DNA of 64,000 nt from an uncultured Bacillales bacterium (GTDB lineage: Bacteria > Bacillota_I > Bacilli_A > RFN20 > CAG-449). Where the stretch lies: assembly GCA_945873815.1 (NCBI GenBank), contig CAMCEE010000002.1, positions 103,781 to 167,780 on the forward strand, given 5' to 3'. Below the pieces are notes generated by a model. That model was not told where the DNA came from and did no database searches. It worked only from the letters and a program-made list of their open reading frames with translations. Shown piece by piece: positions 17,429 to 64,000 of this stretch. The number at the start of each line of letters is the position of its first letter. Position 1 is the stretch's first letter. A program made the translations under genes and the position numbers.

Positions 17429-17433
17429 GATAA

Positions 17434-18459: not shown

Positions 18460-18468
18460 GAGAATAAA

Positions 18469-19308: not shown

Positions 19309-19329
19309 TTTCGAAAGGGGAACATAATC

Positions 19330-20124
19330 ATGAATCAATTTTCATTAGAAGGTAAAATCGCACTCATTACAGGTGCTTCATATGGTATCGGATTTGGTAT
19401 TGCTCAAGCATATCATAATGCGGGTGCAAAAATCGTATTTAACGATATAAGTGAAGAAGCAGTTGCTAGAGGACTTGAAAATTACAAAGCTGCTGGCATT
19501 CCAGTACATGGATATGTATGCGATGTTACAAACGAAGAACAAGTTCAAGCAATGGTAAAACAAATTGAAGAAGAAGTCGGTATAATTGATATTCTTGTTA
19601 ATAATGCTGGTATTATTAAAAGAATTCCAATGACTGAATTATCTGCTTCAGATTGGAGAAAAGTGATTGATATTGACTTAACTGGACCATTTATTTGTTC
19701 AAAAGCAGTTCTCCCATCAATGATTAAAAAAGGACATGGTAAAATTATTAATATTTGTTCCATGATGTCAGAACTTGGTAGAGAAACAGTTTCTGCATAT
19801 GCTGCTGCAAAAGGTGGCTTAAAGATGTTAACAAGAAATATCTGTGCTGAATATGGTGAATACAATATTCAATGTAATGGTATTGGACCTGGTTACATTG
19901 CTACTCCACAAACTGCTCCATTAAGAGAAACTCAACCTGATGGAAGTAAACATCCATTTGACCAATTCATTTGTTCAAGAACTCCTGCAGGACGTTGGTT
20001 GAATCCAGATGAATTAGGTGGACCTGCAGTATTTTTAGCTTCAGATGCATCAAATGCTGTCAACGGACACATACTATACGTTGATGGTGGTATCTTAGCT
20101 TATATTGGAAAACAACCTAAGTAA
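19330..20124 (+). CDS. kduD: 2-dehydro-3-deoxy-D-gluconate 5-dehydrogenase (SDR)
   Basis: SDR Rossmann motif TGASYGIGFGIA and the catalytic YxxxK (YAAAK). It is paired with kduI. Confidence 0.8.
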   Translation: MNQFSLEGKIALITGASYGIGFGIAQAYHNAGAKIVFNDISEEAVARGLENYKAAGIPVHGYVCDVTNEEQVQAMVKQIEEEVGIIDILVNNAGIIKRIPMTELSASDWRKVIDIDLTGPFICSKAVLPSMIKKGHGKIINICSMMSELGRETVSAYAAAKGGLKMLTRNICAEYGEYNIQCNGIGPGYIATPQTAPLRETQPDGSKHPFDQFICSRTPAGRWLNPDELGGPAVFLASDASNAVNGHILYVDGGILAYIGKQPK

Positions 20125-20163
20125 GAATATAGGTAATAACCGCTATCATTATCTATTTTGACA

Positions 20164-20193
20164 AAGTACGCATCCTCCGCGTACTTTTTTTTA
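20164..20193 (+). terminator. Rho-independent terminator after kduD
   Basis: GTACGC-atcctcc-GCGTAC hairpin followed by a T9 run. Confidence 0.7.
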
Positions 20194-20287
20194 CATTTTG
20201 GAATTATATCGACAATATAAAAAAATTATATCTAGATTTTTTTATTTGATATCTATATAATCAAGTCATGGGGGGATACTATTTATT

Positions 20288-34821: not shown

Positions 34822-34860
34822 ACAAAAAAAGCCTCGAGAATTCGAGACTTTTTATTTTAT
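34822..34860. terminator. Putative bidirectional terminator between priA and the convergent metalloprotease gene
   Basis: CTCGA-gaat-TCGAG hairpin flanked by an A7 tract on the 5' side and TTTTTATTTTAT on the 3' side. The stem is short. Confidence 0.4.
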
Positions 34861-44477: not shown

Positions 44478-46431
44478 GGGAATTTGACAGAATCTTCAAC
44501 TAAAAATACTTAATCCAGTGACTCTTATACTTAAGTATAATTTTCTCTTTTTTTATGTCAAATTTCTTATTTTTTATGTTGTATGAATTCGTATGATATG
44601 TTATAATATATTTGGTGATATATTTATGCGAGTTTCTTTAATGAAATGTGGTAATGACGATAAGCTCGTCTATATTGTTGACTCTACTCGTGTCGATAAT
44701 AAAATTAAAACTATTGTTGTTGAAAAATTAGGTAGACTTTCTGATTTAAAAAAGAATTATTTTGATCCTATTGCTTTTGCTAAAAAGAGAGCTCTTCAAC
44801 TCACAAACGAAAAAAAGGCTAATGAAGATAACTTTGATGTCAAATTTTTTACTCAACGTATTCTTTCTTCATCACAAACTTCTTTCAATGCAGGCTATCT
44901 GTTCTTGCAAAAGATCTATTACGGATTATCTTTAGATAAAATTTGTTTAGAAATTCAAGAAGATTCTAAAACTAAATATGATTTAAACAACATCTTAAAA
45001 GATTTAATCTTTTCTAGAATTCTTTATCCTTCTAGTAAACTTTCTACTTTTGATCTCGCTCATAATTTCTTAGAATCTCCTTCTTATGAATTACATGATG
45101 TTTATCGTGCTTTAGATTTATTATCTAATAACATTGACCTTATTCAAAAAGAAGTTTACTCAAGTTCTTTGAAGATTTGCAAACGGAATACTAATATACT
45201 TTATTATGACTGTACTAACTTCTTCTTTGAAATTGAACAACAAGATGGCTTTAGAAATTATGGTTTTTCTAAAGAACATCGCCCTAATCCTATTGTTCAA
45301 ATGGGTTTATTTATGGACGGAAATGGAATGCCTTTAGCTTTTAATATTAATCCTGGTAATACTAATGAACAAATTACTCCTAGACCAACTGAAGAAATGA
45401 TTGAAAAAGAATTCGGCTTATCTAAGTTTATCTATTGTTCTGATGCTGGTTTAGGATCATATAACAACAAATGGTTTAATCAATTAAAAGATCGCTCATT
45501 TATTGTTACTCAATCCTTAAAAAAGATTAAATCTTATCTTCTTAATTGGGTATTAGATGATAATAATTGGAATATACCTAAAGATAAATGCGAATTCAAT
45601 CAAATTATTTTTAAATCTCGCCCAATCAATGAAAAAGGAACTATCATTATTGATGACTTAAATTCTCAAACTGAAATTAATCAAAGATTAATTGTCTCTT
45701 TTTCTCCAAGGTATGCAAAATATCAAAAAGAAATTAGGGATGCCCAAATTGATAGAGCCAAAAAACTAATTGCTCATCCAAGTAAATTTGATAAATACTC
45801 ATCCCAAGACTGCAAAAGATTCATTAAAAATATTGCTTTTGATTCTAAAACAGCTGAAGTAATCGCTAGAGATTTATCTTTGGATTTAGACGCGATTAAC
45901 GAAGAAGCTATGTTTGATGGTTATTATGCTTTAGTAACTAATTTAGATGGTTCAGATGAGGAAATCATTAAGATTAATCACAATCGTTGGGAAATTGAAG
46001 AATCATTTAGAATCATGAAAACAGATTTTAAATCTAGACCAGTTTATTTACAGAATGAAAATAGAATTCGTTCTCATTTCTTAACTTGTTATCTTGCTTT
46101 ACTTATCTATCGTATTCTTGAACAAAAGATTAATGATGATTCACATCATTACACTACTACTCAAATTATTTCTTCATTAAAGGAAATGAACTTATTCAAA
46201 TTAAATGATGTTGGTTTTGCTTCTAATTATCAAGCCTCAGAATTATTAGATTCTCTTTGTAAATCTTTTGATTTAGATCTTAATAAACAAGCATATAGAT
46301 CAAATAAAATAAAAAAATTAATTAAATTAAGTAAAAAACCATACAACATTTTCTAAGCACTAAAAAATGGTAAAATTCCCGATTTATCGGAGTTTCTACC
46401 ATTTTTATTTACTTTAATTGTCAAAGATGAG
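44478..46431 (+). mobile_element. IS1634-family insertion sequence (about 1.95 kb) with a single transposase ORF
   Basis: It is bounded by the 131-bp direct repeats. Ends GGGAATTTGACAG… and …CTTTGACAATT(rc) form imperfect terminal inverted repeats. Long, variable TSDs are the hallmark of IS1634-family elements. Confidence 0.75.
44593..46356 (+). CDS. IS1634-family (IS4-superfamily DDE) transposase
   Basis: 587 aa. The N-terminal region …MKCGNDDKLVYIVDSTRV… and the overall length match IS1634/ISMac-type transposases. Confidence 0.75.
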   Translation: MICYNIFGDIFMRVSLMKCGNDDKLVYIVDSTRVDNKIKTIVVEKLGRLSDLKKNYFDPIAFAKKRALQLTNEKKANEDNFDVKFFTQRILSSSQTSFNAGYLFLQKIYYGLSLDKICLEIQEDSKTKYDLNNILKDLIFSRILYPSSKLSTFDLAHNFLESPSYELHDVYRALDLLSNNIDLIQKEVYSSSLKICKRNTNILYYDCTNFFFEIEQQDGFRNYGFSKEHRPNPIVQMGLFMDGNGMPLAFNINPGNTNEQITPRPTEEMIEKEFGLSKFIYCSDAGLGSYNNKWFNQLKDRSFIVTQSLKKIKSYLLNWVLDDNNWNIPKDKCEFNQIIFKSRPINEKGTIIIDDLNSQTEINQRLIVSFSPRYAKYQKEIRDAQIDRAKKLIAHPSKFDKYSSQDCKRFIKNIAFDSKTAEVIARDLSLDLDAINEEAMFDGYYALVTNLDGSDEEIIKINHNRWEIEESFRIMKTDFKSRPVYLQNENRIRSHFLTCYLALLIYRILEQKINDDSHHYTTTQIISSLKEMNLFKLNDVGFASNYQASELLDSLCKSFDLDLNKQAYRSNKIKKLIKLSKKPYNIF

Positions 46432-50558: not shown

Positions 50559-52835
50559 ATGGAGAATTTAACAAAAAAAGAAAAAATATCAACCTTTGTA
50601 AATTATGGAATAATTTTCATAATGATAATAACGTTCTTTTTCGGATTATTTGGATTAAATGATGTCAGTAAGAAAAAAAGTAAAGATGAACTGATATCAT
50701 TAAATGAGAATTGGAGCATTAATGGTGATATTGTTGATATATCAGATTATAAAGTTTTATTAGGTAAAGATGAAAAAATAACTCTATCTTATGTGACAGA
50801 TGAAACGTTATATCGAAATAATAATTTACTTTTTTATTGCGATATGATGGGAATAGATGTTTTTGTTAATGATAAAAAGATTTATACGGTTAATCGAAGT
50901 GAAATAAGCGGTTGCGTATTAGTTAGATCGATGGTTGTAGTTGATCTAATCAATGTGTGTATTGGTGATACTGTATCTATTGATATTTATAATATTAGGG
51001 GAGATTCTCTTGAATATGAATTACCTACAATTAAGGCAGGAACTGAGAATTCAATTAAGAATAGTATATTTTTGGAAGAAAGTATAACGATTTTTTCTTT
51101 TATTCTTTCTATCGCTGTATTAATAACTTTTATTACATATATTTTCTATGCCTCGAAAACAAGGAAAACGATGGAGAAAAGATTTGTCTCTTTTGGTTTA
51201 TTCATATTAGTTTCAACGATATGGTTATTTTTTGATTCGAATCTAGCTAATACACTTCCTTTAAATATTGAAACTACATCTCTTATATCATTATATTTAT
51301 TTAAACTTCTTCCTCTTGGATTGTTATTTTTTGTGTTACGTTCATTCAAGAGCGATCGTGTCATTCTAATTAGAATAATGATTATCTTATGTTACATCAA
51401 TATTGCAACTGGTACGTTATTATCCTTTTTAAGAGTGATTCCACTTAATAATCTAGTTTTCATTGATCAAACATTATTTGGATTATCGGTTATGGCAACA
51501 TTGTTTTATGTAAATGTTTACGCGAGAAAATATAGAAATGAGCCACAACAAAAAATCACATTTATTGCTTTCTTTGTTTTATTAGCATTCTATATTTCAT
51601 CCTTAGTATGTTATTACATTTATGAATCGAAGATATATCACGATATAATGTCTATTGCAATCGTCATATTCTACGTATTTATCTTCTTGATTGTCATTTA
51701 TTTTTCTAGAGTGGATTCTAAGTTAAAGAAGAAAGTTGCAGAAGAAAGAGAATATTATCGTTTAATGTCATATAAAGATGAATTAACTGGGCTTAATAAT
51801 ATTCGTGCATACGAAGAAGATTTGAAATCCTTTGAGACCCAAAAGACAGAAAATACTATATTAGTGGTGATCGATATTAATGATGTTAAACGAATAAATG
51901 ATACATATGGACATGGAGCAGGTAATGTACTTATCACTCAATGTGCACAATGCATTACAAAAACATTTAGTAAATATGGAAGGTGCTACCGCATACGAGG
52001 AAATGAATTTGCCTTAATTATTGATTATCCTTCCTTCGATATTGAAAAGAGATTATCGTATTTTAATGAATTAATAAAGGCTTCAAACGGAGATAGAATA
52101 TATAAACTATCAGTTGCAGTAGGCTATGCAAAATATAAAGATAATGAAGGAAAGATGCTTGAGGATCTTCGTTTCCAAGCTGATCTAGATATGTATAAAG
52201 ATAAGAATAGAAAGAGATTAGTTGAGATCAAATCTAAAAATGAAATATGGCAAAAGATGATTGATACTATCATTTCTATATTTGAAGTTAAGGACCCATA
52301 TACGGCTCAACATTCAAATAGAGTAAGTTACCTTTCTAAATTTATTGCTGAATCAATGGGGTTTACCGAATTAGCAATACAAGATATTTTCCTTGCAGGA
52401 AAGCTTCATGATATTGGGAAGATTGGAATTTCGGATAAGATTCTAACAAAGAAAGCAAGATTGAATGATGAGGAATTTGAAGAGATTAAGAAGCACACTA
52501 TTATTGGAGAAAAGATTATTAAATCGTCTGGTGGCATGGACAAAATTGCAAATATTATTCGTCACCATCACGAAAAATATAATGGTACTGGATACCCAGA
52601 CAGAATATCAAAGGATGATATTCCAATTGAATCTAGAATACTTGCAATTGCAGATTCAATCGATGCAATGACTTCCGATCGTTGCTACAGAAAAGCATTA
52701 ACTTACGATGAATGTAAGGAAGAGATTACAAGAAATTTAGGTGTTCAATACGATCCAATTGTTGGAAAATATACTCTTGAAAATTGGGATGAATTAGTCT
52801 CAATTCATAAAGAATTAAGAAATCAATTAGATTGA
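50559..52835 (+). CDS. Membrane sensor: 7TMR-DISM-like extracellular and 7TM N-terminus, degenerate GGDEF domain (RGNEF), and HD-GYP c-di-GMP phosphodiesterase domain
   Basis: N-terminal signal/TM, a periplasmic domain, then 7 TM helices. The GGDEF-fold region carries RIRGNEFALII instead of GG(D/E)EF. The HD-GYP motifs are HDIGK and HHEKYNGTGYPD. Confidence 0.75.
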   Translation: MENLTKKEKISTFVNYGIIFIMIITFFFGLFGLNDVSKKKSKDELISLNENWSINGDIVDISDYKVLLGKDEKITLSYVTDETLYRNNNLLFYCDMMGIDVFVNDKKIYTVNRSEISGCVLVRSMVVVDLINVCIGDTVSIDIYNIRGDSLEYELPTIKAGTENSIKNSIFLEESITIFSFILSIAVLITFITYIFYASKTRKTMEKRFVSFGLFILVSTIWLFFDSNLANTLPLNIETTSLISLYLFKLLPLGLLFFVLRSFKSDRVILIRIMIILCYINIATGTLLSFLRVIPLNNLVFIDQTLFGLSVMATLFYVNVYARKYRNEPQQKITFIAFFVLLAFYISSLVCYYIYESKIYHDIMSIAIVIFYVFIFLIVIYFSRVDSKLKKKVAEEREYYRLMSYKDELTGLNNIRAYEEDLKSFETQKTENTILVVIDINDVKRINDTYGHGAGNVLITQCAQCITKTFSKYGRCYRIRGNEFALIIDYPSFDIEKRLSYFNELIKASNGDRIYKLSVAVGYAKYKDNEGKMLEDLRFQADLDMYKDKNRKRLVEIKSKNEIWQKMIDTIISIFEVKDPYTAQHSNRVSYLSKFIAESMGFTELAIQDIFLAGKLHDIGKIGISDKILTKKARLNDEEFEEIKKHTIIGEKIIKSSGGMDKIANIIRHHHEKYNGTGYPDRISKDDIPIESRILAIADSIDAMTSDRCYRKALTYDECKEEITRNLGVQYDPIVGKYTLENWDELVSIHKELRNQLD

Positions 52836-52984
52836 TCTTATAATAAAATAATGACGAAAAAATACAAATGTATTAATTTTTTATGCAAAAACTCTAATGT
52901 TTTTTAATAAAGAATAAAAAAATCTTTAAAAATCAAAATTTTTTTCAAAACCTCTTGCAATATAAAAAAAACCGCATTATTATG

Positions 52985-53075
52985 TATTTGTATTTGGGGG
53001 CAAAATTGTAGCAATACAATGACGCAAAACTAGAGGGTCCTACAGGGATAGCCAGTTGCAATATGTAACTATTTA
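52985..53075 (+). ncRNA. Candidate c-di-GMP-I (GEMM) riboswitch
   Basis: GGGGGCAAAA, then the hairpin ATTGTA-GCAA-TACAAT (GNRA tetraloop), then GACGCAAAAC, then TAGAGGGTCC, then GGGATAGCCAGTTGC. This parallels the GEMM-I core GGCAAACC / GNRA-capped P1b / GACGCAAAGC / GGGUC. It lies in the 5' leader of the 53251 operon. Confidence 0.5.
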
Positions 53076-53113
53076 TTAGAACGTATGTTGCGATTGGATT
53101 AGAAAATTGAAAC

Positions 53114-53150
53114 AAACCGCTCTAATAAAAGATGAGCGGTTTTTATTTTC
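53114..53150 (+). terminator. Intrinsic terminator (probable riboswitch expression platform)
   Basis: CCGCTC-taataaaagatga-GAGCGG followed by TTTTTATTTT. It lies about 40 nt after the aptamer and 100 nt before the first CDS. Confidence 0.6.
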
Positions 53151-53250: not shown

Positions 53251-53988
53251 ATGAAGTCATCTGTAGTTCGTAAATATCACCGCCTCGCACTTAGCAAGAA
53301 ATTCACCACTAGGGCATTAGCAATTCTTGGTACTCTCATTCTTCTTATCGCAGCACTAACAATCTATGGCTCACAAACTGGAAACTTCGTCGTATCGGTA
53401 AAAAATATTAACCGCAATGAAAGTATTGCTCTATCGATAGAAGAAGATAAAAGTAATGAAGTCTCTAGATTGATTGCAAATCCATTAAAGGATTGCATAG
53501 ATGGGTGTTACGATGACATTCCTGAAGACATTGATGAAGGATTAGGCTCCAAAAACGACAAATCCGGAAGGTATTTGGCAATGTCATTCTATTTAATTAA
53601 TAATGGAATGACGACAAGAAACGTCGCTATGGATTTCAGAATTACTCAAGTTACGAAAAGGATCGATACAATACTTCGAGTAATGATTATCCAAGATGGT
53701 GAAAAAACATTCTTCTCAAAAGCCAGAGAGGATGTAGATAACGGAGACGGGTTAGGGGAACCAATATGGGGCTTTGATTACTCCGGACGGTATGTTATTA
53801 CAAATGCAAATGCATTCGATGATGAATACATCGTTCACAAGAAAATCAATGATTTCGAAAAAGGCTCTTCAATAAAATTCACGATAGTGATGTGGCTTGA
53901 TGGTTTAGATGATCAAAACCCAGATGGAAATAGAGATATGTTGGGTGGAGCACTAAAAACCGAATTGAATTTTAGCATTATAGGCTAA
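53251..53988 (+). CDS. Hypothetical N-terminally membrane-anchored or secreted protein (TapA-like position)
   Basis: RBS GAGGAGGGGG. The N-terminal hydrophobic segment is ALAILGTLILLIAALTIYGS. It is the first gene downstream of the riboswitch candidate. Confidence 0.4.
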   Translation: MKSSVVRKYHRLALSKKFTTRALAILGTLILLIAALTIYGSQTGNFVVSVKNINRNESIALSIEEDKSNEVSRLIANPLKDCIDGCYDDIPEDIDEGLGSKNDKSGRYLAMSFYLINNGMTTRNVAMDFRITQVTKRIDTILRVMIIQDGEKTFFSKAREDVDNGDGLGEPIWGFDYSGRYVITNANAFDDEYIVHKKINDFEKGSSIKFTIVMWLDGLDDQNPDGNRDMLGGALKTELNFSIIG

Positions 53989-54015: not shown

Positions 54016-54846
54016 ATGAAAAAGACAAGTTCAAAATTATTCTTAGCTGCAGCAGCATTAGGTTTAGCAGCAGCATCAACAGTAGGATCAACATACGCAT
54101 GGTTCACTGTTAATGGATCAGCACAAGCTTCAGGATTATCAATGGAAGTTGCAAGTGGATCAGGTATTATGATAAAAAAACATGCTGATTCAACTTATTT
54201 AGCAGATATGAATATTTCAACTGATTTTGCGGGAAAGAAATGGGAACCATGTACACCAACTGCTCCAAATGATTTATCTAGCTTTAAGAAGCTTAATATT
54301 CAAGATACAATCAGTAGTAACGGATATACATATGATAATGCAGTAAACACTGATAATAAACTTTATTTCTATACACTTGATTTAGATGTTAGAGTGTCTG
54401 CAGGCTTTAATTTTAAAGTATATGTTTCTGATATTAGTGATACTTCTAGTCAAGATGCTGATTGTAAAGCTGCAAATGTTGTAAGAGTAGGTTTTAGAAA
54501 ATATGATAAAACTGGAAACAACATTACTGAAACAACTGTTCATACTATTCAAACAAGAAATTATGGTTCTGAAAGTAATTATGCTTTAACTAAATTTAAG
54601 AGTGTATTTGGTATCAACGATCCTGCATTTACAGCAGAAACTTCTAATATAACTGATTGTATCAATGGTGAAGGTTTGAATTGTAAAACTGTAACTATAG
54701 CTGAAGGCGCAGAAGCTCTTAATGGATATGTTACACAAAGAGTTGAAATCGTTGTATGGTATGAAGGAAATGACTATCAATGTGCAGATGATATTTTATC
54801 AAAAAAAGTAACATTCAAATTGAACTTCGTACCAGTAGATGCATAA
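54016..54846 (+). CDS. Secreted TasA/camelysin-family-like protein with a SipW-cognate-class signal peptide
   Basis: Signal MKKTSSKLFLAAAALGLAAASTVGSTYAWFTVNG. The …G(S/T)(Y/F)A(W/Y)F… ending is characteristic of SipW substrates such as TasA and CalY. A SipW gene follows immediately. Confidence 0.5.
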   Translation: MKKTSSKLFLAAAALGLAAASTVGSTYAWFTVNGSAQASGLSMEVASGSGIMIKKHADSTYLADMNISTDFAGKKWEPCTPTAPNDLSSFKKLNIQDTISSNGYTYDNAVNTDNKLYFYTLDLDVRVSAGFNFKVYVSDISDTSSQDADCKAANVVRVGFRKYDKTGNNITETTVHTIQTRNYGSESNYALTKFKSVFGINDPAFTAETSNITDCINGEGLNCKTVTIAEGAEALNGYVTQRVEIVVWYEGNDYQCADDILSKKVTFKLNFVPVDA

Positions 54847-54978
54847 TTTATATATTTATTAGCAAAAACTATATATTTCATTTAATAAAATGGGTTAGTG
54901 GTGTTGCCACTTCCCTATTTTATTATTATAATAAACTTGGTATATTATAAATATTTATAATATCAAGCGAGGTACTTT

Positions 54979-55824
54979 ATGAAAAATAATGTTTTAAAGA
55001 AAGTGTTAAAGATTTCAGGTAACGTTCTTTTTGGAATCTTTTTAGTCTTTATTTTGTTTATTGCAATAACAAATATTAGAGCTAAATCAACCGATAATGT
55101 TCCAAATATTTTTGGATATGGGTACTTAAATGTATTATCCGATTCTATGGATGGAGATAAAGAGGACTCATTTAAAATTGGTGATTTGATTTTTGTTAAA
55201 CTAGTTAATAAAGAAGAAGCAGAAAATTTAAAAGTAGGAGATATCATTACCTATAGAACTATTATTGATGGTAAGGATATGACTATTTCCCATAGAATTA
55301 TTAGAATTGAACCTGACAATCCTTATAAATATGTTACGCAAGGTGATCATCCTTCTTCTAGTATGGCGGCAACTGATGCTGTTAAAGTAAATCAAGTTAT
55401 CGCAGTATATCAAGGTAAATGGGCTGGTGCTGGTTCAGTATTTGCTTGGTTCTCGAGTGGATTTGGATTTTTTCTTATTGTATGTGTACCTTGTATTTTA
55501 TTCTTGATTTTTGAAATCATTAATTTCGTAAAAGTATATATGGAATATAAAAACGAAAAACAACAAGTTGCTATGGCAGGTGGACCTGATAGCATTCAAA
55601 ATAAGATTAGAATGAGAAAGGCAGCATATGATGATCTTGTTAAAGAGGGTACTTTAACTAAAGAGCAAGCAGAGGCTGCACTTAATGAATATATTAAGAG
55701 TGTATCTGTAATAGAAAATGATACTACTTTAGAAGAAAAGCCTGTAGGTGCTAATGAATCATTAGAAGTATCTACTGAAGAAGCAAAGGAAAAAACTTCA
55801 GCAGTTGAAGAAAAAAATGAATAA
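54979..55824 (+). CDS. sipW: Signal peptidase I, archaeal-type SipW family (S26), with a C-terminal extension
   Basis: N-terminal TM. The catalytic block is NVLSDSMDGD…IGDLIFV…VGDIITY…ISHRIIRIE…TQGDH, matching SipW VLSxSME…VGDIITF…THRVVEI…TKGDNN. A second TM and a K/E-rich tail follow. Confidence 0.75.
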   Translation: MKNNVLKKVLKISGNVLFGIFLVFILFIAITNIRAKSTDNVPNIFGYGYLNVLSDSMDGDKEDSFKIGDLIFVKLVNKEEAENLKVGDIITYRTIIDGKDMTISHRIIRIEPDNPYKYVTQGDHPSSSMAATDAVKVNQVIAVYQGKWAGAGSVFAWFSSGFGFFLIVCVPCILFLIFEIINFVKVYMEYKNEKQQVAMAGGPDSIQNKIRMRKAAYDDLVKEGTLTKEQAEAALNEYIKSVSVIENDTTLEEKPVGANESLEVSTEEAKEKTSAVEEKNE

Positions 55825-55935: not shown

Positions 55936-57579
55936 TTGATGAACGAATTTGCTCAATATTATTTAGAATTCATGCGTCAAGTTTGGGAACAAATTTGTAA
56001 TTTCTTTGTTGGATTATATAATTGTTTCGCTGATATTCTTGTATTAAATCATATTGACAACATTAAATTGATTGGAAAATATGCAAATAGTTTTAATGTA
56101 TTATCTTGGATTTTATTTGTAATAATTGATGGTATTACATTAGCTTTTATTGTTTTATTATTTGTTAAGGCATTCCAATTATTGAGAAGATGGTTGAAAT
56201 TTAGAAAGAAAGAAGTTGAAAAAGAAGACTTACTATTTGAAATTGCTCAATTGAAAGAGGAAGTTAAACGTACAATTAAGGATAAAGAGAGAATTCTTAA
56301 TTTACAACTAGGTGAAGTAAGAGAACAAGGTTTATTAGTTCCTTCAAAAGGTATGATTACGCAAGAAGATGCAACGGGAGGCTACTATCCTAGTGATGAA
56401 TTAGTTAGCGTTTCTCCTCAAAGCTTTTTACCTAGTGATATGAAAAGTGAAAAAGAAGTCACTTCTTCTAGTGCAACAGAAGAAAAAGGAAGATTCTCAA
56501 AACTTGCGCTTGTTGATCAAAAATATGCGGAATCAGGTATTTACCATATTACAATGACAGAAGATGATTTAGTTGGATTACCTGAAATTATTAATAGATT
56601 CGTTAATTATGCGGCTAGTCAACATCATTTGTATTATACAAAACGTACAATTTCTAAATTTGTCGCAGGTTTAGCTACTTCAAAGATTATTATTCTTGAA
56701 GGTATATCTGGTACTGGTAAAACATCATTGCCATATGCTTTTTCAAGATTTATGAAGAACCAAGCTCAAATCGTTTCTGTACAACCTTCTTGGAGAGATA
56801 GAACAGAAATTCTAGGTTATTTAAATGAATTTACAAAGAAATTTAATGAAACTGACTTCTTAAAGGCATTATATGAAGTTTCTTATCGTGAAGATGTTAA
56901 CTTAATCGTCCTTGATGAGTTGAACTTAGCTCGTATTGAATATTATTTTGCTGAATTCTTATCTATTATGGAAATGCCTGATAAGAGTGAATGGAAAATT
57001 GACCTTGTTCCAACACAAGAGCCTAATGATCCACATCATTTAACTGAAGGAAAATTATTGATTCCACAAAACTTATGGTATATTGGAACAGCAAACAAGG
57101 ATGACTCAACTTTTACTATTACTGATAAGGTTTACGATAGAGCTGTTACTCTTTATTTAAATGAAAGAGCAAAATATTTTGATGCTCCATTTACTGAATC
57201 TATCAATTTATCATATGATTATTTACAAAAACTCTTTGATGAAGCTAGTGAATTACATACGATTTCATTAAAGAATTTAGATAATATCGAAAAATTAGAT
57301 GAATTTGTCCAAGAAAATTTCAAGATTGCTTTTGGTAACCGTATTATGAAACAAATTAAGACATTCGTTCCTGTATACGTTGCTTGTGGTAATTCTGAAT
57401 TAGATGGATTGGATTACATGATTTGTACAAAGATATTTAAGAAATTTGAGGCATTAAACTTGCCTTTCTTGAAGAAGGAATTAGAGGGTTTAATCGCATT
57501 AATTCAAAAATTATACGGAAAAGAATCGTTTAAAGAATCAATTGCATATTTACGTGATTTATTAAAGATGGCTTCGTAG
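55936..57579 (+). CDS. Membrane-anchored McrB-like AAA+ (AAA_5) NTPase with an N-terminal TM helix and coiled coil
   Basis: TM helix SWILFVIIDGITLAFIVLLFV. Walker A LEGISGTGKTSL. The Walker B and sensor region is LIVLDELNLARIEYYFAEFLSIME. The motif WYIGTANKDDSTFTITDKVYDRA matches McrB blocks DEINRA…GEL.YLLEYR and IGTMNTADRS…RR. Confidence 0.6.
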   Translation: MMNEFAQYYLEFMRQVWEQICNFFVGLYNCFADILVLNHIDNIKLIGKYANSFNVLSWILFVIIDGITLAFIVLLFVKAFQLLRRWLKFRKKEVEKEDLLFEIAQLKEEVKRTIKDKERILNLQLGEVREQGLLVPSKGMITQEDATGGYYPSDELVSVSPQSFLPSDMKSEKEVTSSSATEEKGRFSKLALVDQKYAESGIYHITMTEDDLVGLPEIINRFVNYAASQHHLYYTKRTISKFVAGLATSKIIILEGISGTGKTSLPYAFSRFMKNQAQIVSVQPSWRDRTEILGYLNEFTKKFNETDFLKALYEVSYREDVNLIVLDELNLARIEYYFAEFLSIMEMPDKSEWKIDLVPTQEPNDPHHLTEGKLLIPQNLWYIGTANKDDSTFTITDKVYDRAVTLYLNERAKYFDAPFTESINLSYDYLQKLFDEASELHTISLKNLDNIEKLDEFVQENFKIAFGNRIMKQIKTFVPVYVACGNSELDGLDYMICTKIFKKFEALNLPFLKKELEGLIALIQKLYGKESFKESIAYLRDLLKMAS

Positions 57580-57599
57580 TTTATTGTAGGTGATTTAGT

Positions 57600-59333
57600 A
57601 TGGCAGATATAAATTTTGAAAAAAAATACTATTCATCAATACTAGGATCTATCAATAGAAATGATAGTCACAACTTTTATAATGAAATGCTCAATGCAAT
57701 TAAAGGCGGCAATATGGAAGTATTCCTTACTCGTAGCCGTCAACAATTGTCATTTGATTCGACATGGATTCATCAAATTAGTGACTATTTAAGATACGTA
57801 GAGAATATCGTTAGAAATCCTCGTATCTACATGTTAGCAGTTGAAGAAGTTACTCCAATTCAAAGAGCAAAGAAGATTAATGCTAGATCAATTCAACATT
57901 TATCTTCTCACGTTCAAAATGTTCAAGAACTTAGAAAAGATGGAACTATTGTTCCTTCAAAAGTATTATCGACAACTTTTGAAGATACTTTTGCAATATA
58001 TGAAAACAGATTTGTTATGACATTAATTAACAAATTAGCTGCTTTCGTTGAAGTTAGATATGATTCCATTTTAGAAAGTATTAAATCATATCAAATGGAT
58101 AAGATTGTTGCAAAATCATCTTTTGTTTGGCGAAATTATTCAATCGATGCAAAGATTGAATTAAATGTTAAAGAAGAAATTTTAGATGAAGTAAGTAAGA
58201 AAAATAAGGAATTATTGGATGATATTATCGTTATTAGAAATTATGTTAGAGGATTTATGACTTCAAGTTTCTATCAAACAATGAAAGAGAGAACTCGTCC
58301 TGTTACTCCTCCTATTTTAAGAACTAATATCATTACAAAATCTGTTGATTATAACTCATGTTTGAAATTGTGGCTATTCTTAGATTCTTACCGTCAACTA
58401 GGTGTTGATTTAGAAGTTATGGATAAAGAATTACCATTTGATGATAAGTTCATTGATGAAGTTAGCGATATGCTATTTATGAACTATTCTTTGTTTGTAT
58501 CTAACCAAGAGGATAGAAAAGAGAATTATGAACTTCTTCCATTTAAAAAGAGAAAAGAAAAGAAACCTAAAGTTAATAAATTATTAGTAGCACATGATGA
58601 AGAAGAGGGATTGAAGGATGATAACATTAATGAACCTACAATTTCAGAATACTTCTATCAAAGAGTAAAGAAAAACTATAAGACAGAATTTACAGAACAA
58701 ATAAATTCAGGTATTTCTTATAATAAAGCCTTCTTAAGCGTATATAAGAAAATGCTTAAAATTGAAAATGGTATTCAAGATGAAATAGTTGAAAGTATGC
58801 AAAAGCGTATTCCTGTCACTAATTCTATTAAAGAAAAAAGAAGAGCAAAACATAAGCAATATAAAAAAATGAAGGGGATGTATGAAAACCTAATCGCAGC
58901 TAAAGAATTGGATTTAGAAAAGGCTCGACAAAAACTAGAGAAATTGAATGAAACTCTTGAAAAATATGCTAAAGAAGAAAAGGAATATCAATTAGAACTT
59001 CGTAGACAAAAAAGAAAGCAACAAAAAGAGGAACTCGAGCTTCAAAATAAAAACGATGAAGAAAAGAAGAAGGAAGAAAAATTAAAGAAGAAAAAAGAAT
59101 CCATTAAAAAGATTCCACTTCCAGTAAGCGACAAACCACTTGAAATTGATCTTCCTGAAAAAGAAGATGCTCCAGTAGTTGCTGAACCAAATGATGAAGA
59201 AATCAAACCTTCTGTTGGAATAAATTCTCGTACTGCTCGTCTTCTAGAATATCTTCAAAAGGCTCGTCAAGCATCAAGAAGTAAAGAAGTTAAGGTCGAA
59301 AGCAGAAATATAGACCACAATGAGGAAAAGTAA
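57600..59333 (+). CDS. Large hypothetical protein (577 aa). The N-terminal globular domain is a possible McrC-like partner. The C-terminus is an extremely K/E-rich coiled coil.
   Basis: It starts 21 nt after the ATPase gene. The C-terminal 250 aa are low-complexity and basic (…KKKEEKLKKKKESIKK…). No PD-(D/E)xK motif could be recognised confidently. Confidence 0.4.
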   Translation: MADINFEKKYYSSILGSINRNDSHNFYNEMLNAIKGGNMEVFLTRSRQQLSFDSTWIHQISDYLRYVENIVRNPRIYMLAVEEVTPIQRAKKINARSIQHLSSHVQNVQELRKDGTIVPSKVLSTTFEDTFAIYENRFVMTLINKLAAFVEVRYDSILESIKSYQMDKIVAKSSFVWRNYSIDAKIELNVKEEILDEVSKKNKELLDDIIVIRNYVRGFMTSSFYQTMKERTRPVTPPILRTNIITKSVDYNSCLKLWLFLDSYRQLGVDLEVMDKELPFDDKFIDEVSDMLFMNYSLFVSNQEDRKENYELLPFKKRKEKKPKVNKLLVAHDEEEGLKDDNINEPTISEYFYQRVKKNYKTEFTEQINSGISYNKAFLSVYKKMLKIENGIQDEIVESMQKRIPVTNSIKEKRRAKHKQYKKMKGMYENLIAAKELDLEKARQKLEKLNETLEKYAKEEKEYQLELRRQKRKQQKEELELQNKNDEEKKKEEKLKKKKESIKKIPLPVSDKPLEIDLPEKEDAPVVAEPNDEEIKPSVGINSRTARLLEYLQKARQASRSKEVKVESRNIDHNEEK

Positions 59334-59334
59334 T

Positions 59335-59961
59335 ATGAAATCGAAGATTAATTGGAAAAAGATTCTAAAGATTTCAGGCAATGTATTATTAGGTATATTA
59401 ATTGCATTCATTCTCTATCTTGTCGTTGAGATTGTTATTGCATTTATTATAAAAAAACCACCATGCATCTTCAATCATTACATATTCGTAGTACTAACTA
59501 ATTCAATGGAAGATACGATTATGGTGGGAGAAGTAGTATTTGTCAAAAGAGCAGCATTCTCAAATGTAAATATTGGCGATATCATATCTTTTATTGATAT
59601 TAATCCATCGGATGCGGTTTATGGACAATATATTACTCATAGAGTAGTTGGAATTACTCAAAATGGTTTACTTATCACACAAGGTGATAATAATATCGTA
59701 CAAGATTCTTACCGTGTTAGTGAGAATAATTTTATCGGAATTATGGATTATCATTCCAAGTTCCTAGGTAGTATTGTTACATTTTTTAGTAACAATTCCA
59801 ATATCGTATTTATTATAGTTTCTATCGTTCTAATAACAGTTATCTGCCTTGAAGCTAAAAACTTTCTTATTTTAAAGGAAAAAGCTAAACAAGAGGATGA
59901 AAAGGAAAAACTAAAAGAACAAATCATGCAAGAGATTAATAAAGGAGAGAAAGAAGAATAG
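59335..59961 (+). CDS. Second SipW-family signal peptidase I paralog
   Basis: MKSKINWKKILKISGNVLLGILIAF is near-identical in pattern to the N-terminus of the 54979 protein. The catalytic block is VVLTNSMEDTIMVGEVVFV…IGDIISF…ITHRVVGIT…TQGDNN. An RBS GAGGAAAAG is 5 nt upstream. The ATG at 59335 is preferred over 59320. Confidence 0.7.
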   Translation: MKSKINWKKILKISGNVLLGILIAFILYLVVEIVIAFIIKKPPCIFNHYIFVVLTNSMEDTIMVGEVVFVKRAAFSNVNIGDIISFIDINPSDAVYGQYITHRVVGITQNGLLITQGDNNIVQDSYRVSENNFIGIMDYHSKFLGSIVTFFSNNSNIVFIIVSIVLITVICLEAKNFLILKEKAKQEDEKEKLKEQIMQEINKGEKEE

Positions 59962-62586
59962 ATGAAAAGAGTAAATATCCTTATTTACACAATTATATCT
60001 TTTGTTATAGTGGGCGTCCTTTCTGTCGCTTATGTTTTCTACTTGCAAACTTTAGTATTAAGCAAAACTAAATCAAATATTTCAGTTAATGTGACTGAGA
60101 CTTCATCTTATATTGATAGCTATGCGGAAACTCATTTTAAGATATTTGAAAAAGAAGTTAGTGATAATAATATAGGTAATAAGGAATTCATAAATGGATT
60201 TTTAAGAAAATATGGATCTTATGGCTTTGATAAGGTGGGTTATTATAATGATAATACTAATGTCTATTATTATGATTCACTTGTTTCTAAAAAAGAAGGA
60301 AAGTTCGAATTTAAAACATTAAGTAAAGATAAAACATTAAATCAAACGATTTCTCTTATTGAAGAAAGATTTCTTTTTGATAATAATTCTAGAACTGTAA
60401 TGCTCCTATATTGCGTTAATGATGAGGGAAGAAACTTCTTTGCTTTACAAAAATTCTCTTCTTTTATCGATATGCTTGTCAATCCTTATACTAATAATAG
60501 TAATAGTGATACTGTTAAATATTTTGTTTCTACAAGTGATGGATTAATTACTTCTTCTAATTCAGAAGAAAAGAATTTATTAACTATGAATCATTTTTTT
60601 AAGGAAATGACTACAAGGGAAGAATTCAATAATAATATGATTAAGGAGAATTCTATCGTATATGAATTCGACGATTATTCATCTTCATATGTTTCGGGTC
60701 ATAGTATTCTTTCAAAATACAATTCTAATGATTTGTATCTCTATGGCTTGATTCCAACCACATACGTTAATAGCATTAGTAATACCGTGATTATTTCAAC
60801 CTCAATTCTTTTAGCTACTTTAGCATTAATTTTTATCGGATTTGGTATTTATTTGTATGCTTCATATACAATGGCAAGAAAAAAATATATGGTTGAAGGA
60901 ACATTAATTAGAGATGATAGCCACTATTCCATCCTTCTTAATAAACAAGGTAAAATCGTATCTAATAATGCAAAATTTGCTTCATTAGGATTGAAAAAAC
61001 GTGGAATATTTTCATCTTGCATTGATGTTTTAGAATTAAATGGTGGAGATGAAGAATTCATTGATTTATTAGAAAATAGAGGAGATTTTACAATAAAAAT
61101 CAATGATTTAGAGCAAAAAGATAGAACGATTAAATTTATCGTTGTTAAAAAGAAATATGGATATCAATTATTAGGATATGATATTTCCGATGCAGTAATT
61201 GTCCCTTATCATTCTGAAAGAAAAGAAGAAAAGAAAAATGCATTTATACCAAATATCGATGAACTTCATACTTCGATTGATTTGAATTCATTATATAAAG
61301 ATGATTTATTCGACGCTTTGAATAAGAAAGCATTATACATTAGAATTGAAAAAATAATTGAAGAGAAAGCAAGGAATAATCAAAACACCTATTTATTCTA
61401 TTTTGGTCTATCAAATGAAGAGGAAATTGTTCGTACTTATGGTAACGCTATTGAAGAATTAGTAAATGCAAGTATGTTAGATGCGATTACAAAAGAATTT
61501 AATGGAATCGAAGTATACAATATTGATGACCATCATTTCGCTTTCTTTTATGAATTACATGATACTTTCCATTCATTGACTAAGATGATGGAAGATATTG
61601 GTACACGTTTAAAGAAACCAGCAAAGATTTTATCTAACGAAATTGAAATTGAAATTGATTTCGGTATTTATCATTTCGCTTCATTTAATCTTGAAGGAGT
61701 ATCTCCAAAGAAATTGCTTGAAAGAGCTGCTCTTGCGTTTAGACAAGCAATAACTCTTTCGAATAAAACATATAAGATTTACGATAGTAACCTTGAAATT
61801 GCATTCGAACTTGATGATATTATTGCACGTGATATTAGAAATGGTCTTGATAATAATGAATTCGTCACTTATTTCCAACCAAACTATTCTTTAAAAGATG
61901 ATAGAGTATCTGGATTTGAGTGTTTACTTAGATGGAATAATGATAAATATCGTTATGACTCACCATTTAAATATATTCAAGTCGCAGAAAAAGTTGGTCT
62001 TATTAATGAGATTGGTTATTTTACATTAACGGAATCTTTCAAACTTATCAAAGAATTAAATGATCCATACTTGCATATATCTGTTAACGTTTCTCCGGCA
62101 CAATTCTTACAAACTGGTTTCATTTCAAAATTAGTTAGTATGTATACTGAATATGATGTTCCTTATTCATCGATTTGTATAGAAATCACAGAAACTTTCT
62201 TAATTCAATCTATGAATGAAGTAATTGAAAAACTTAAATACTTGCGTTCATTTGGAATTAAAGTTTATCTTGATGATTTTGGTACAGGATATTCTTCACT
62301 ACTATATCTTGCAGAACTTCCAGTTGATGTTATTAAGATTGATAAAGCATTCATCACTCCGCTTAAAACGAGTAAGAGCTCAAGAACTATTGTTTCAGAA
62401 CTTATTCAAATTGCAACTGAATTGAATATGGAGGTAGTTGCAGAAGGTGTTGAAGATGATTATCAAGTCAATTTCCTCGAAAAGAAAAAGTGTATGAATA
62501 TTCAAGGATATTATTTCTCAAAACCTGTTCCTAAAGAACAAGTAAAAGATACTTTAGATATTAAGAGAAAGAAGAAGAAAGAATAG
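59962..62586 (+). CDS. Membrane protein with a large extracytoplasmic domain, a degenerate GGDEF-like region and an intact EAL c-di-GMP phosphodiesterase domain
   Basis: Two TM helices bracket a roughly 250-aa outside domain. EAL motifs present: YFQPNY, ECLLRW, NVSP, DDFGTGYSSL, KIDKAF and EGVEDDYQ. The start codon abuts the SipW2 stop. Confidence 0.75.
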   Translation: MKRVNILIYTIISFVIVGVLSVAYVFYLQTLVLSKTKSNISVNVTETSSYIDSYAETHFKIFEKEVSDNNIGNKEFINGFLRKYGSYGFDKVGYYNDNTNVYYYDSLVSKKEGKFEFKTLSKDKTLNQTISLIEERFLFDNNSRTVMLLYCVNDEGRNFFALQKFSSFIDMLVNPYTNNSNSDTVKYFVSTSDGLITSSNSEEKNLLTMNHFFKEMTTREEFNNNMIKENSIVYEFDDYSSSYVSGHSILSKYNSNDLYLYGLIPTTYVNSISNTVIISTSILLATLALIFIGFGIYLYASYTMARKKYMVEGTLIRDDSHYSILLNKQGKIVSNNAKFASLGLKKRGIFSSCIDVLELNGGDEEFIDLLENRGDFTIKINDLEQKDRTIKFIVVKKKYGYQLLGYDISDAVIVPYHSERKEEKKNAFIPNIDELHTSIDLNSLYKDDLFDALNKKALYIRIEKIIEEKARNNQNTYLFYFGLSNEEEIVRTYGNAIEELVNASMLDAITKEFNGIEVYNIDDHHFAFFYELHDTFHSLTKMMEDIGTRLKKPAKILSNEIEIEIDFGIYHFASFNLEGVSPKKLLERAALAFRQAITLSNKTYKIYDSNLEIAFELDDIIARDIRNGLDNNEFVTYFQPNYSLKDDRVSGFECLLRWNNDKYRYDSPFKYIQVAEKVGLINEIGYFTLTESFKLIKELNDPYLHISVNVSPAQFLQTGFISKLVSMYTEYDVPYSSICIEITETFLIQSMNEVIEKLKYLRSFGIKVYLDDFGTGYSSLLYLAELPVDVIKIDKAFITPLKTSKSSRTIVSELIQIATELNMEVVAEGVEDDYQVNFLEKKKCMNIQGYYFSKPVPKEQVKDTLDIKRKKKKE

Positions 62587-62597
62587 GAGGTAAAGAT

Positions 62598-64000
62598 ATG
62601 TTTATAATGTTAGAAAATCAAACTAGTAATAACGCAGGTAATATTGTTTTTACAGTTCTTATCGTTTTAGTTATTCTTGCATTATCAGGATTACTCGTAT
62701 GGTCCATTATTAGAGAAAGAAAAAGAGTGCAAGAAGAGAAAAATGCTCAAAAGATTAATCTTGGACTAATGACAAGAAGAGAAGCAACTCAACATTTAAA
62801 TGATTTCATTAAAACTTATCGTTTATCAAATGAAGCTACTTGCTTTATTTTCGAACTTAGTAACGTAACAGAATTAATCGATTCATTCGGAAAGAAAAAC
62901 GAGATTTTATTAAGGGAAACTATGATGCAAAATGTTGTTAATTCACTGCCTAAAAATACCATTTTAGCAGAATATAAACCTGAAAATGATTCATATATGA
63001 TTATTCTAAGAGGAATGATTCCTCGTGAACGTATTTTGTCCTTTGCAGATACACTTGCCGATGCGATTGAAAAACCTATTGCAGTTCCTCATTCAGATAT
63101 AGAAACTTCTTATAGTTGTTTTATGGGTATCTCCTTTTATCCTAACCAAGCTATTACTTCTAATGATTTAATTTCCAAAGCAGATATTGCTTTATATATG
63201 AATCACAAGAATCAAGATAAGAGATTTGTTACCTATTCTCCTCAATACAGTCAAGTGGAAGCAGAGAATGTTGCTTATTATAATGAAATCAAGAATGCAA
63301 TTAAGAATAAGGAATTTGCTTTGTATTATCAACCTATTATCGATCATAAAACTAATGAATTAGTTGGTATGGAATCGTTAATTAGATGGGAACATCCTAC
63401 ATTAGGAATATTACCTCCTAAAAAATTCTTAACTATATTAGAAAATTCTGGTGATATCCTTTGGGTTGGTAGTTGGGGAATTAGTACTATTGCATCATTT
63501 TATCATGAACAACGCGAATTATTTAAGAATGATTTTTTCTTTTCAATCAACTTATCAATTAAACAATTATTGAATAATAATATCGTCAGTGAAATGTGTG
63601 AAACATTAAAAAAATATTCAGTTCCAACAACTGCAATATGTATTGAAATTGAAGAATATGCATTATATGAGAAATATGCATCGATTAAAGAAACACTTCA
63701 AGAATTCCAAAAGAAAGGATTTAAAGTTGCGGTTGATCAATTTGGATTAGATTCAAATAATATCATTAAATTAGAAAAGCAAGATTTCTTTATGCTAAAG
63801 ATTTCAAGTCAAGAATACCTTGAAGAAAAAGAATCATTTATCCATCAAAAAATGGCAGAAATGCTTTCGGAAACTTGTGTCGCGAAAGGAACAAAAATTT
63901 GCGCATTAAAAGTTGAAAATAGAGGTGATATGGATTATCTGGAAAGCAAAGGTATTTCTTGGGTTCAAGGGTATTGCATTTCAGAACCAATGGATAAAGA
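62598..64000 (+). CDS. TM-anchored GGDEF-like/EAL-like protein with degenerate catalytic motifs. It is 3'-partial and continues beyond the window.
   Basis: The ORF opens at the ATG at 62598 after the RBS AGGAGG. There is no stop before the window end, so it is absent from the ORF track. The EAL-fold motifs are ALYYQPII, ESLIRWEH and VAVDQFGLDSNN, where DQFGLDSNN replaces DDFGTGYSS. This suggests a non-catalytic receptor. Confidence 0.55.
   Translation, partial: MFIMLENQTSNNAGNIVFTVLIVLVILALSGLLVWSIIRERKRVQEEKNAQKINLGLMTRREATQHLNDFIKTYRLSNEATCFIFELSNVTELIDSFGKKNEILLRETMMQNVVNSLPKNTILAEYKPENDSYMIILRGMIPRERILSFADTLADAIEKPIAVPHSDIETSYSCFMGISFYPNQAITSNDLISKADIALYMNHKNQDKRFVTYSPQYSQVEAENVAYYNEIKNAIKNKEFALYYQPIIDHKTNELVGMESLIRWEHPTLGILPPKKFLTILENSGDILWVGSWGISTIASFYHEQRELFKNDFFFSINLSIKQLLNNNIVSEMCETLKKYSVPTTAICIEIEEYALYEKYASIKETLQEFQKKGFKVAVDQFGLDSNNIIKLEKQDFFMLKISSQEYLEEKESFIHQKMAEMLSETCVAKGTKICALKVENRGDMDYLESKGISWVQGYCISEPMDK

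Follow-up and report, generated by a model that had tools for sequence, protein, structure and literature searches.

A 64,000-nucleotide (nt) stretch of the genome of an uncultured Bacillales bacterium (assembly GCA_945873815.1, contig CAMCEE010000002.1, positions 103,781 to 167,780 of the forward strand; this whole stretch is called the window below, and its own numbering is used) contains a locus of ~11 kb that probably serves the cyclic di-GMP (c-di-GMP)-induced assembly of a surface fibre and not the restriction of DNA. The locus comprises, in order, a c-di-GMP riboswitch, genes for a membrane protein (p245) and a putative fibre subunit (p276), a signal peptidase gene (SipW1), genes for an McrB-like AAA+ nucleoside triphosphatase (NTPase) and its McrC-like partner, a second signal peptidase gene (SipW2), and genes for two EAL-domain proteins (EAL1 and EAL2). 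We are confident that it belongs to CoCoPALM, a class that has already been named and is uncharacterised, so what the window supplies is a member of that class and its context, and no new category.

Four open reading frames (ORFs) at the centre of the locus had been described in an initial annotation, made from the sequence alone, as co-directional and tightly spaced, and all of their coordinates and their strand were reproduced. They lie on the + strand at 55936–57579 (547 amino acids (aa), the NTPase), 57600–59333 (577 aa, the partner), 59335–59961 or, from an alternative start, 59320–59961 (208 or 213 aa, SipW2) and 59962–62586 (874 aa, EAL1), with intergenic gaps of 20 nt, 1 nt (or a 14-nt overlap) and 0 nt. 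Their description as one transcription unit stands as regards the unit and fails as regards its size, since SipW1 upstream and EAL2 downstream also belong to it. The parts that the annotation had recognised there, namely the NTPase motifs with a transmembrane (TM) helix and coiled coil, a nuclease-less partner in the position of McrC, two SipW genes, an EAL protein and a riboswitch, were all recovered as well.

The order of these genes is conserved. The window proteins were compared by tblastn with 83 non-redundant loci, which come from Acholeplasmataceae, Izemoplasmatales, Anaeroplasma, Mariniplasma, Coproplasma and metagenome-assembled genomes of gut Bacilli and Clostridia, and only loci with sufficient flanking sequence were counted. 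The partner gene lies directly downstream of the NTPase gene in 71 of 77 loci and a SipW gene directly upstream of it in 61 of 66 (two more were missed solely through gene overlap), while a SipW gene is found within 6 kb downstream in 46 of 53 and EAL genes are found upstream in 22 of 35. Nearly all of the genomes, over lineages of order rank, carry the NTPase/partner pair between the two SipW genes, and the juxtaposition of McrB-like and SipW genes first remarked on in the window recurs in the same order in dozens of independent genomes. That four unrelated genes came to lie side by side by chance, an idea for which only the unusual combination of domains speaks, is refuted by this recurrence and by one gene fusion (see below), and we discount it almost completely.

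Relatives of the NTPase are present in at least 593 species-representative genomes, and the family comprises 738 clusters at 50% identity with E ≤ 1e-30. Full-length relatives with 47–53% identity occur in Acholeplasma laidlawii, A. hippikon, A. granularum, Izemoplasmatales, Anaeroplasma, Mariniplasma, Coproplasma and many metagenome-assembled genomes of gut and rumen Bacilli and Clostridia. A mobile-element origin was considered and rejected; plasmid and phage relatives share the NTPase core only, at ≤40% identity, and no full-length relative was found on plasmids or phages. The closest plasmid-borne relatives of the core (~39% identity) are 788-aa AAA proteins of the Rhodoferax antarcticus plasmid NZ_CP019242 (47271–51460), which have as neighbours a DUF2357 protein and another large protein with an AAA domain, in a CoCoNuT-like defence arrangement on a mobilizable plasmid.

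The NTPase gene (55939–57579, +) probably starts at ATG 55939, 6 nt past a GGGGGG ribosome-binding site, although the listed ORF begins at TTG 55936; we prefer the ATG because of this spacing and because the closest homologues are 546 aa long. The protein carries GISGTGKT (Walker A) at residue 256, LIVLDE (Walker B) at 323, EYYFAEF, and GTANKDDS at 384–391. In the last of these, GTAN(K/R/Q/N)DDS in the family, N387, D389 and D390 are invariant in 20 of 20 members; NKDD may be read as NxD(D) or as NxxD, and HMMER aligns it without gaps with NTAD of E. coli McrB. The core as a whole is 47–53% identical across orders and has 122 invariant columns. The only PDB sequences matched below E = 0.01 are three E. 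coli McrB chains (6hz4; E = 3.6e-6 to 8.5e-6), the sole other match being a Lon protease chain at E = 0.84, and the best named NCBIfam match is McrB (2.4e-5), while the Pfam AAA_5 match is sub-threshold (E = 5e-3). A MoxR-type chaperone, which the initial annotation had given as an example of a non-McrB family that would refute it, was rejected: neither AAA_3 nor VWA is matched by the NTPase, the partner or their neighbours, so that objection does not apply.

Ahead of the NTPase domain (~206–547), a hydrophobic segment is followed by a TM helix and a coiled coil, which a linker of low complexity joins to the domain. Hydropathy analysis gives one strong TM segment at ~58–82, followed by a highly charged, heptad-like helix at 83–125 in which L99, E102, L106 and I120 are conserved in the family alignment. 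The DNA-binding specificity domain of McrB-type proteins is absent from this N-terminus.

The McrC-like partner (57600–59333, +) has a DUF2357-like N-terminus of ~200–310 aa, which includes a helix, a β-hairpin (163–194) and a second helix, and a helical tail rich in lysine and glutamate. The protein itself has no Pfam, NCBIfam or PD-(D/E)xK family match and falls below Pfam detection for DUF2357, so the domain assignment is drawn from its homologues (53–61% identity over 79–98% of the length). PF09823 (DUF2357, the McrC N-terminal domain) is matched by 18 of 30 aligned homologues, with a best E value of 1.5e-11, and six homologues scanned singly score 25–38 bits against a gathering score of 23.3, covering approximately residues 4–204. 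An McrC-like domain can accordingly be recognised in the partner by way of these homologues. The initial observation that it lacks a nuclease motif holds and can be extended: PD-(D/E)xK, HNH, HEPN and other nuclease families are missing from the partner and from all 30 homologues.

An AlphaFold2 model of the partner has a predicted local distance difference test score (pLDDT) of 75 overall and of 80–95 for much of residues 1–300. Past the last strand (269–277) only helices fold, separated by low-confidence coil, at 348–499 (including a ~90-residue helix at 410–499) and at 543–561; lysine and arginine make up 34% of residues 401–500, in keeping with the lysine/glutamate coiled coil originally noted at this end of the protein. 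A profile search of the PDB returned only low-complexity lysine/glutamate matches such as CAF-1. By sequence it is well supported that the partner is an McrC homologue that has retained the ring-engaging domain and lost the nuclease, and the predicted fold lends this weak further support.

These findings bear directly on the suggestion of the initial annotation that a membrane-tethered, McrBC- or CoCoNuT-like anti-phage defence module had landed in a biofilm locus, which we now regard as very improbable. The NTPase is of the McrB lineage, its core (residues 222–362 only) matches the PADLOC profile PDC-M26A with E = 9.4e-39, and the nearest relatives outside its family are plasmid-borne AAA + DUF2357 pairs with 37–40% core identity. 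In the PADLOC run, however, this core was all that matched, with the partner, SipW2 and EAL1 matching nothing; a Pfam scan found no nuclease domain in any gene from 50559 to the end of the window, and there is no specificity domain for binding DNA or RNA. The near-constant SipW flanking across orders is, moreover, unlike a patchy inserted island, and neither the sequence composition nor the surroundings suggest one: G+C content and composition are even over the locus region, the genes that flank the locus in the window are housekeeping genes (RsmB/RsmF, RlmN, a Ser/Thr kinase, ribulose-phosphate epimerase, pyrimidine-nucleoside phosphorylase, Sir2), and the full-length protein has no plasmid or phage relative.

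The two peptidases that enclose the pair, SipW1 (54979–55824, +; two TM helices) and SipW2 (59335–59961, +), are signal peptidases I of the archaeal/endoplasmic reticulum type. They score 59.9 and 74.3 bits against TIGR02228, the family that includes SipW and whose curated cut-off is 51.85 bits, and SipW2 also matches Pfam Peptidase_S26; the assignment of SipW-type peptidases beside and upstream of the pair is therefore secure, and both fall under the cut-off of the Bacillus SipW equivalog. The SDSM/TNSM, SHRI/THRV and QGD boxes can be read in the two translations. In 69 of 70 loci the peptidase ahead of the NTPase belongs to the SipW1 type, and in 53 of 61 the one behind the pair belongs to the SipW2 type; judged by these sequence relationships the two are orthologous groups with fixed positions. 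Residues 189–281 of SipW1 form a charged, cytoplasmic tail of ~90 residues beyond the second TM helix, which SipW2 does not have; this tail is a candidate dock for the coiled coil of the partner.

In one reduced locus (8001–10955 of L085), which consists of an EAL gene, a 250-aa gene, a 276-aa gene, the NTPase gene and a fusion gene, an McrC-like protein is fused in frame to a complete SipW (P0159, 984 aa; SipW at residues 762–964). The fusion is topologically sensible because the N-terminus of SipW is cytoplasmic.

The presumed substrates of these peptidases are encoded between the riboswitch and SipW1. The first gene past the riboswitch, p245 (53251–53988, +; 245 aa), encodes a protein anchored in the membrane with its N-terminus inside (TM 17–43), and an alignment of 37 sequences shows a conserved YGQxxGNFV motif past the anchor. 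No other non-enzymatic gene of the locus is as well conserved: a p245 homologue lies upstream in 33 of the 39 loci with enough flank. The p245 product is a putative fibre base or initiator. The next gene, p276 (54016–54846, +; 276 aa), combines a variable body, predicted to be β-rich, with an N-terminus of 55 residues, comprising a signal peptide and GSTYAWFT, that is nearly invariant in the alignment (MKKTSSKLFLAAAALGLAAASTVGSTYAWFTVNGSAQASGLSM). A hydrophobic region followed by T(F/Y)AWF(T/S) occurs in 78 ORFs on the operon strand of related loci versus 2 on the opposite strand. We take the p276 motif to resemble the SipW-cognate signal peptides of TasA and CalY (G-T-x-A-x-F-x-D). The two proteins also have a C-terminal motif in common, W-x-E-G-x-D ... 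F (hhalign probability 96%, E = 2.5e-9), and are for this reason probably paralogues.

Paralogues from A. laidlawii have weak matches only, to PF12389 (E = 0.05) and TIGR04089 (E = 0.002), and a profile search of the PDB with p276 found nothing. A Foldseek search with a model of p276 returned the Sulfolobus thread 7pnb, CfaB, the AbpA bundling pilus 7ueg and Pap/Fim/Csu subunits. It is likely that p276 is a fibre subunit, and a TasA or donor-strand fold is possible for it.

The A. laidlawii locus (L002; CP103951) ends, in the region 17394–21542, with a 2476-aa ORF behind five small proteins, one of them a Peptidase_S26 protein and others weakly matching camelysin and "exported by SipW"; the large ORF could encode a giant adhesin or a fibre tip. 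Such an ORF at the end of a locus, together with the second riboswitch-led gene set that follows SipW2 in many loci and the high variability of the subunit bodies, would suit a system that, in place of polymerising a fibre, exports or processes large adhesins or other secreted proteins, with the NTPase energising the extraction or release of membrane-anchored precursors. We think this improbable, since the window locus offers only p245 and p276 as candidate substrates, an invariant 55-residue N-terminus on a variable body is the pattern of a polymerising pilin, and the weak fold matches go to donor-strand pilins.

Control by c-di-GMP is the second feature that is conserved along with the pair. 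The aptamer of the window (52989–53063, +) matches the c-di-GMP-I family RF01051 with 51.4 bits against a gathering threshold of 35 (E = 3.9e-7), so that the riboswitch that had been listed as a candidate is genuine, and it scores 77.5 bits with a custom covariance model. This model, built from the aptamers of relatives, gave 65 matches in 1.23 Mb, 64 in related loci plus the window's own, and all 65 are on the operon strand. Rfam places aptamers just upstream of the p245 homologue in six of seven relatives tested, and of the 39 loci whose upstream flank spans 5 kb or more, 31 have a riboswitch there. A promoter-like site, TTGCAA-17-TATTAT (52955–52983, +; candidate, on a consensus match only, 9/12), stands just ahead of the aptamer.

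In 53 of 64 evaluable riboswitches the 5′ arm of the terminator is the aptamer's own conserved 3′ strand (AGCCAGUUG...). Aptamer and terminator are then mutually exclusive, so ligand binding should give read-through, and the predicted structures imply ON-type logic in the relatives. In the window, the aptamer's 3′ strand CCAGUUGCAAUAUG pairs downstream to form a competing hairpin (53052–53097, +) that is exclusive with the folded aptamer in the ViennaRNA minimum free energy (MFE) fold and whose counterpart in relatives is itself the terminator, and an intrinsic terminator of the leader, recognised from sequence and MFE fold, lies at 53114–53149 (+; AAACCGCUC ... GAGCGGUUU, then a U-tract). In the loci L044, L025, L042, L012, L034, L026, L074, L021, L040, L050, L052 and L083 the p245 homologue is preceded by tandem c-di-GMP-I aptamers, two or three in number and each provided with a terminator, and further riboswitch-led gene sets come after SipW2. 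In the Mariniplasma locus L044 there are three (6046–6402), with a further site at 14938–15023. Such arrays suggest a steep, digital response to c-di-GMP.

Three genes at the locus encode proteins of c-di-GMP metabolism. EAL1 (59962–62586, +), which the initial annotation had rightly called an EAL phosphodiesterase gene after SipW2, has an unambiguous EAL domain (Pfam, E = 1.2e-65) whose catalytic motifs ECL, DDFGTG, EGVE and QGY are intact in the translation, together with TM segments at 1–34 and 271–305, an extracytoplasmic region between them and a degenerate GGDEF-like middle. EAL2 (62598–64000, +; partial, as it runs off the window) has a TM helix, an EAL domain (4.8e-48) and a weak GGDEF match (5e-6), and its motifs are degenerate, with AVDQFG for DDFGTG and LKIS for IKID; by its sequence it could be a c-di-GMP receptor and not a phosphodiesterase. 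A tandem pair of long and short EAL genes is conserved in relatives, after SipW2 in the window's subclade (L001, L003 and L005) and mostly before p245 outside it. Directly upstream, flanking the locus, is a gene for a GGDEF + HD-GYP protein with multiple TM segments (50559–52835, +; HD_5 7e-34, HD 1e-22, GGDEF 2.9e-21), in which HDIGK and GYP are intact and RGNEF replaces GGDEF, so that it is probably no cyclase. From their motifs, all three look like degraders or sensors, and there is no obvious synthase among them.

A co-encoded degenerate EAL protein, as a possible c-di-GMP receptor, fits the idea that the McrB-like/McrC-like pair, tethered to the membrane, acts as a regulatory switch or scaffold and not as a mechanical motor of assembly, and that the fibre assembles by itself, like TasA. 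The pair might then be a GTPase timer that gates SipW, might position the fibre at the division site through an FtsB-like anchor, or might relay c-di-GMP status. In Bacillus and Clostridium, SipW suffices for TasA/Bsa-type fibres and no NTPase is required (PMC11580942), the anchor has been described as FtsB-like, and the NxD-type motif is predicted to alter the rate of hydrolysis (PMC11090510). On the other side, strict co-occurrence and a highly conserved core point to an enzymatic role for the NTPase, direct physical coupling is suggested by the McrC::SipW fusion, and no FtsB/DivIC profile is matched; a switch or scaffold therefore appears unlikely to us.

We favour instead the second of the readings that the initial annotation had put forward, in which an NTPase drives an accessory of SipW-dependent fibres and c-di-GMP exerts control, given the synteny across order-level lineages and the riboswitch kept alongside. 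At high c-di-GMP the leader riboswitch would stay folded, the terminator would be blocked and the locus would be transcribed. Subunits of the p245 and p276 types would be exported by Sec and held in the membrane by their N-termini until SipW1 and SipW2 cleave them or hand them over for polymerisation on a p245-type base. The McrB-like NTPase would form a ring on the cytoplasmic face, tethered there through the TM helix and coiled coil, into which the McrC-like protein would insert its DUF2357 hairpin, as McrC does in McrBC, while the long basic coiled coil of the partner would reach SipW or the subunit anchors. Hydrolysis of NTP (probably GTP) would drive or gate the processing, extraction and polymerisation of subunits, making the system a functional analogue of PilB-PilC-PilD, and the EAL proteins would degrade or sense c-di-GMP and so close a feedback loop.

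The specific motor mechanism is held with less confidence than fibre assembly as such. Tentatively, and with somewhat more doubt than belief, we propose that the locus represents an uncharacterised class of filament machine in which parts exapted from a restriction enzyme, a GTPase ring of the McrB type tethered to the membrane and an McrC shaft that has no nuclease, mechanically drive the SipW-coupled assembly (possibly the retraction or release) of TasA-like donor-strand fibres, switched by a c-di-GMP riboswitch.

Several observations weigh against the assignment of the locus to fibre assembly or against parts of that scheme. All members are known from sequence and none from experiment, and the wider clade of the NTPase holds plasmid-borne, defence-like pairs. 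Neither p245 nor p276 matches any Pfam or NCBIfam family, including TasA/camelysin (PF12389 and TIGR04088). The AlphaFold2 model of p276, from a 20-sequence alignment, is poor (pLDDT 52), and its top Foldseek matches, which are donor-strand filaments, have E ≥ 3.9e-3, none being below 1e-3, and give a hint only. None of 20 NTPase members has a DivIC/FtsB Pfam match at E ≤ 1 (hmmscan). The McrC::SipW fusion was seen on a single metagenomic contig and may be a frameshift artefact. The competing hairpin of the window, unlike that of most relatives, is not followed by a U-tract, and the separate strong terminator comes 17 nt later; as the MFE fold of this leader shows no convincing anti-terminator pairing, the ON logic of the window rests on homology. 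Finally, a promoter-like site ahead of SipW1, TTGCCA-17-TATAAT (54904–54932, +; candidate, 11/12 in a consensus scan), lies between the p276 gene and SipW1 and overlaps a weak hairpin with a T-run (54897–54911). The machinery genes may thus also own a promoter, which could uncouple them from the riboswitch.

Two further features of the window lie outside the locus. A gene for a DDE transposase (44593–46356, +; 587 aa, PF01609), ~6.6 kb upstream of the riboswitch, is the sole mobile-element gene seen nearby, and a 782-aa ORF at 34857–37205 (−) matches no Pfam family at E ≤ 1e-5.

The textbook case of a restriction motor driven by GTP is McrBC, and the locus appears to reuse that motor, minus the nuclease and the DNA reader and bound to the membrane, for building at the cell surface. 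If the proposed filament machine is real, it would be a pilus system that is powered by an NTPase and has no kinship with type IV, Tad, conjugative or chaperone-usher pili, and Acholeplasma-like wall-less bacteria would have in it their main output of c-di-GMP. In 2008, 14 GGDEF/EAL proteins were noted in the genome of Acholeplasma laidlawii (PMC2408644); our literature searches found no paper tying c-di-GMP to a target in Acholeplasma, and searches for SipW in Acholeplasma and for riboswitches with c-di-GMP in Acholeplasma returned nothing. A riboswitch-controlled locus found across Acholeplasmatales, Izemoplasmatales and gut Bacilli is a concrete candidate for such a c-di-GMP effector. Because the host range centres on Acholeplasma-like wall-less bacteria, the system is testable in a cultivable organism, and the ON logic of the riboswitch, the two SipW paralogues, the invariant N-terminus of the subunit and the Walker B/N387 site are handles for doing so.

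Among known systems, CoCoPALM is the one closest to the locus. Bell, Makarova, Wolf and Koonin (eLife 2024; PMC11090510) named CoCoPALM in two sentences and deferred its analysis to a later paper, describing a GTPase fused to an FtsB-like TM and coiled-coil domain, with coiled coils on both the McrB and the McrC homologues. The initial annotation's view that no described system couples an McrB-like NTPase to SipW is thus superseded, the association having been named there in passing. In our literature searches no other paper used the name in this sense, and the sole match for McrB with signal peptidase and pilus, besides Bell et al., cites mcrBC as an E. coli strain genotype only. The window shares with CoCoPALM the McrB-like NTPase with an NxD(D/E)-type signature and an N-terminal TM and coiled-coil module, the adjacent DUF2357 McrC homologue with a coiled coil, and the association with signal-peptidase genes. 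Of the FtsB-like module, the TM helix and coiled coil are present and an FtsB/DivIC profile match is undetected; we found no difference in kind. New here are the conserved control by an ON-type c-di-GMP riboswitch, the two position-specific SipW groups, the McrC-like::SipW fusion, the conserved N-terminal motif of the subunits, the relationship of p245 and p276, and a host range centred on Acholeplasma-like wall-less bacteria; PMC11090510 makes no mention of c-di-GMP, riboswitches, EAL proteins, TasA-type subunits or Acholeplasma/Mollicutes-type hosts.

The McrBC systems of E. coli and Thermococcus (PDB 6hz4, 6ut6, 6ut5) have a homologous AAA+ core, the same DUF2357 element of helix, β-hairpin and helix, and the same gene order. 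In the window, by contrast, a TM helix and coiled coil replace the DNA-binding domain, the partner has no PD-(D/E)xK nuclease, and the system is chromosomal, lineage-wide, set between signal peptidases and probably not acting on DNA. Like CoCoNuT, it has an NTPase from the NxD branch of the McrB-like group, both of its proteins carry coiled coils, and its McrC homologue is of a kind that often has no active nuclease. It differs in that its McrB homologue has a membrane anchor and in that CoCoNuT is always linked to HEPN or other nucleases and RNA-binding domains (PMC11090510), none of which was found at the locus.

The TapA-SipW-TasA operon of Bacillus subtilis and the SipW-BsaA-BsaB-BsaC operon of Clostridium perfringens likewise set a dedicated SipW beside secreted β-rich subunits, with paralogous major and accessory subunits, and their function in biofilm and adhesion is consistent with induction by c-di-GMP. 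The signal peptides of TasA and CalY and those of the window subunits presumably all end in a G-(S/T)-x-A-x-F-type motif. These operons differ in having one SipW, no NTPase and no known riboswitch control; the window subunits, for their part, do not match PF12389, and the hosts here are mostly wall-less. The archaeal thread (Saci_0406, 7pnb) and the AbpA bundling pili (7ueg), TasA-like filaments that form by strand complementation after signal-peptide cleavage, are the top-ranked, non-significant fold matches of the low-confidence p276 model, and no sequence similarity to p276 was detected.

Type IV and Tad pili (PilB, PilC, PilD) follow the same functional logic, with subunits that are anchored in the membrane and have a peptidase of their own, and with a hexameric NTPase that works at the membrane from the cytoplasm, and the type IV pili of Clostridioides are likewise controlled by c-di-GMP riboswitches. 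The proteins of the two cases are nevertheless unrelated: an AAA+ NTPase of the McrB clade here versus PilB/GspE, a Ser/His signal peptidase versus an aspartyl prepilin peptidase, and subunits predicted to be β-rich versus α-helical pilins.

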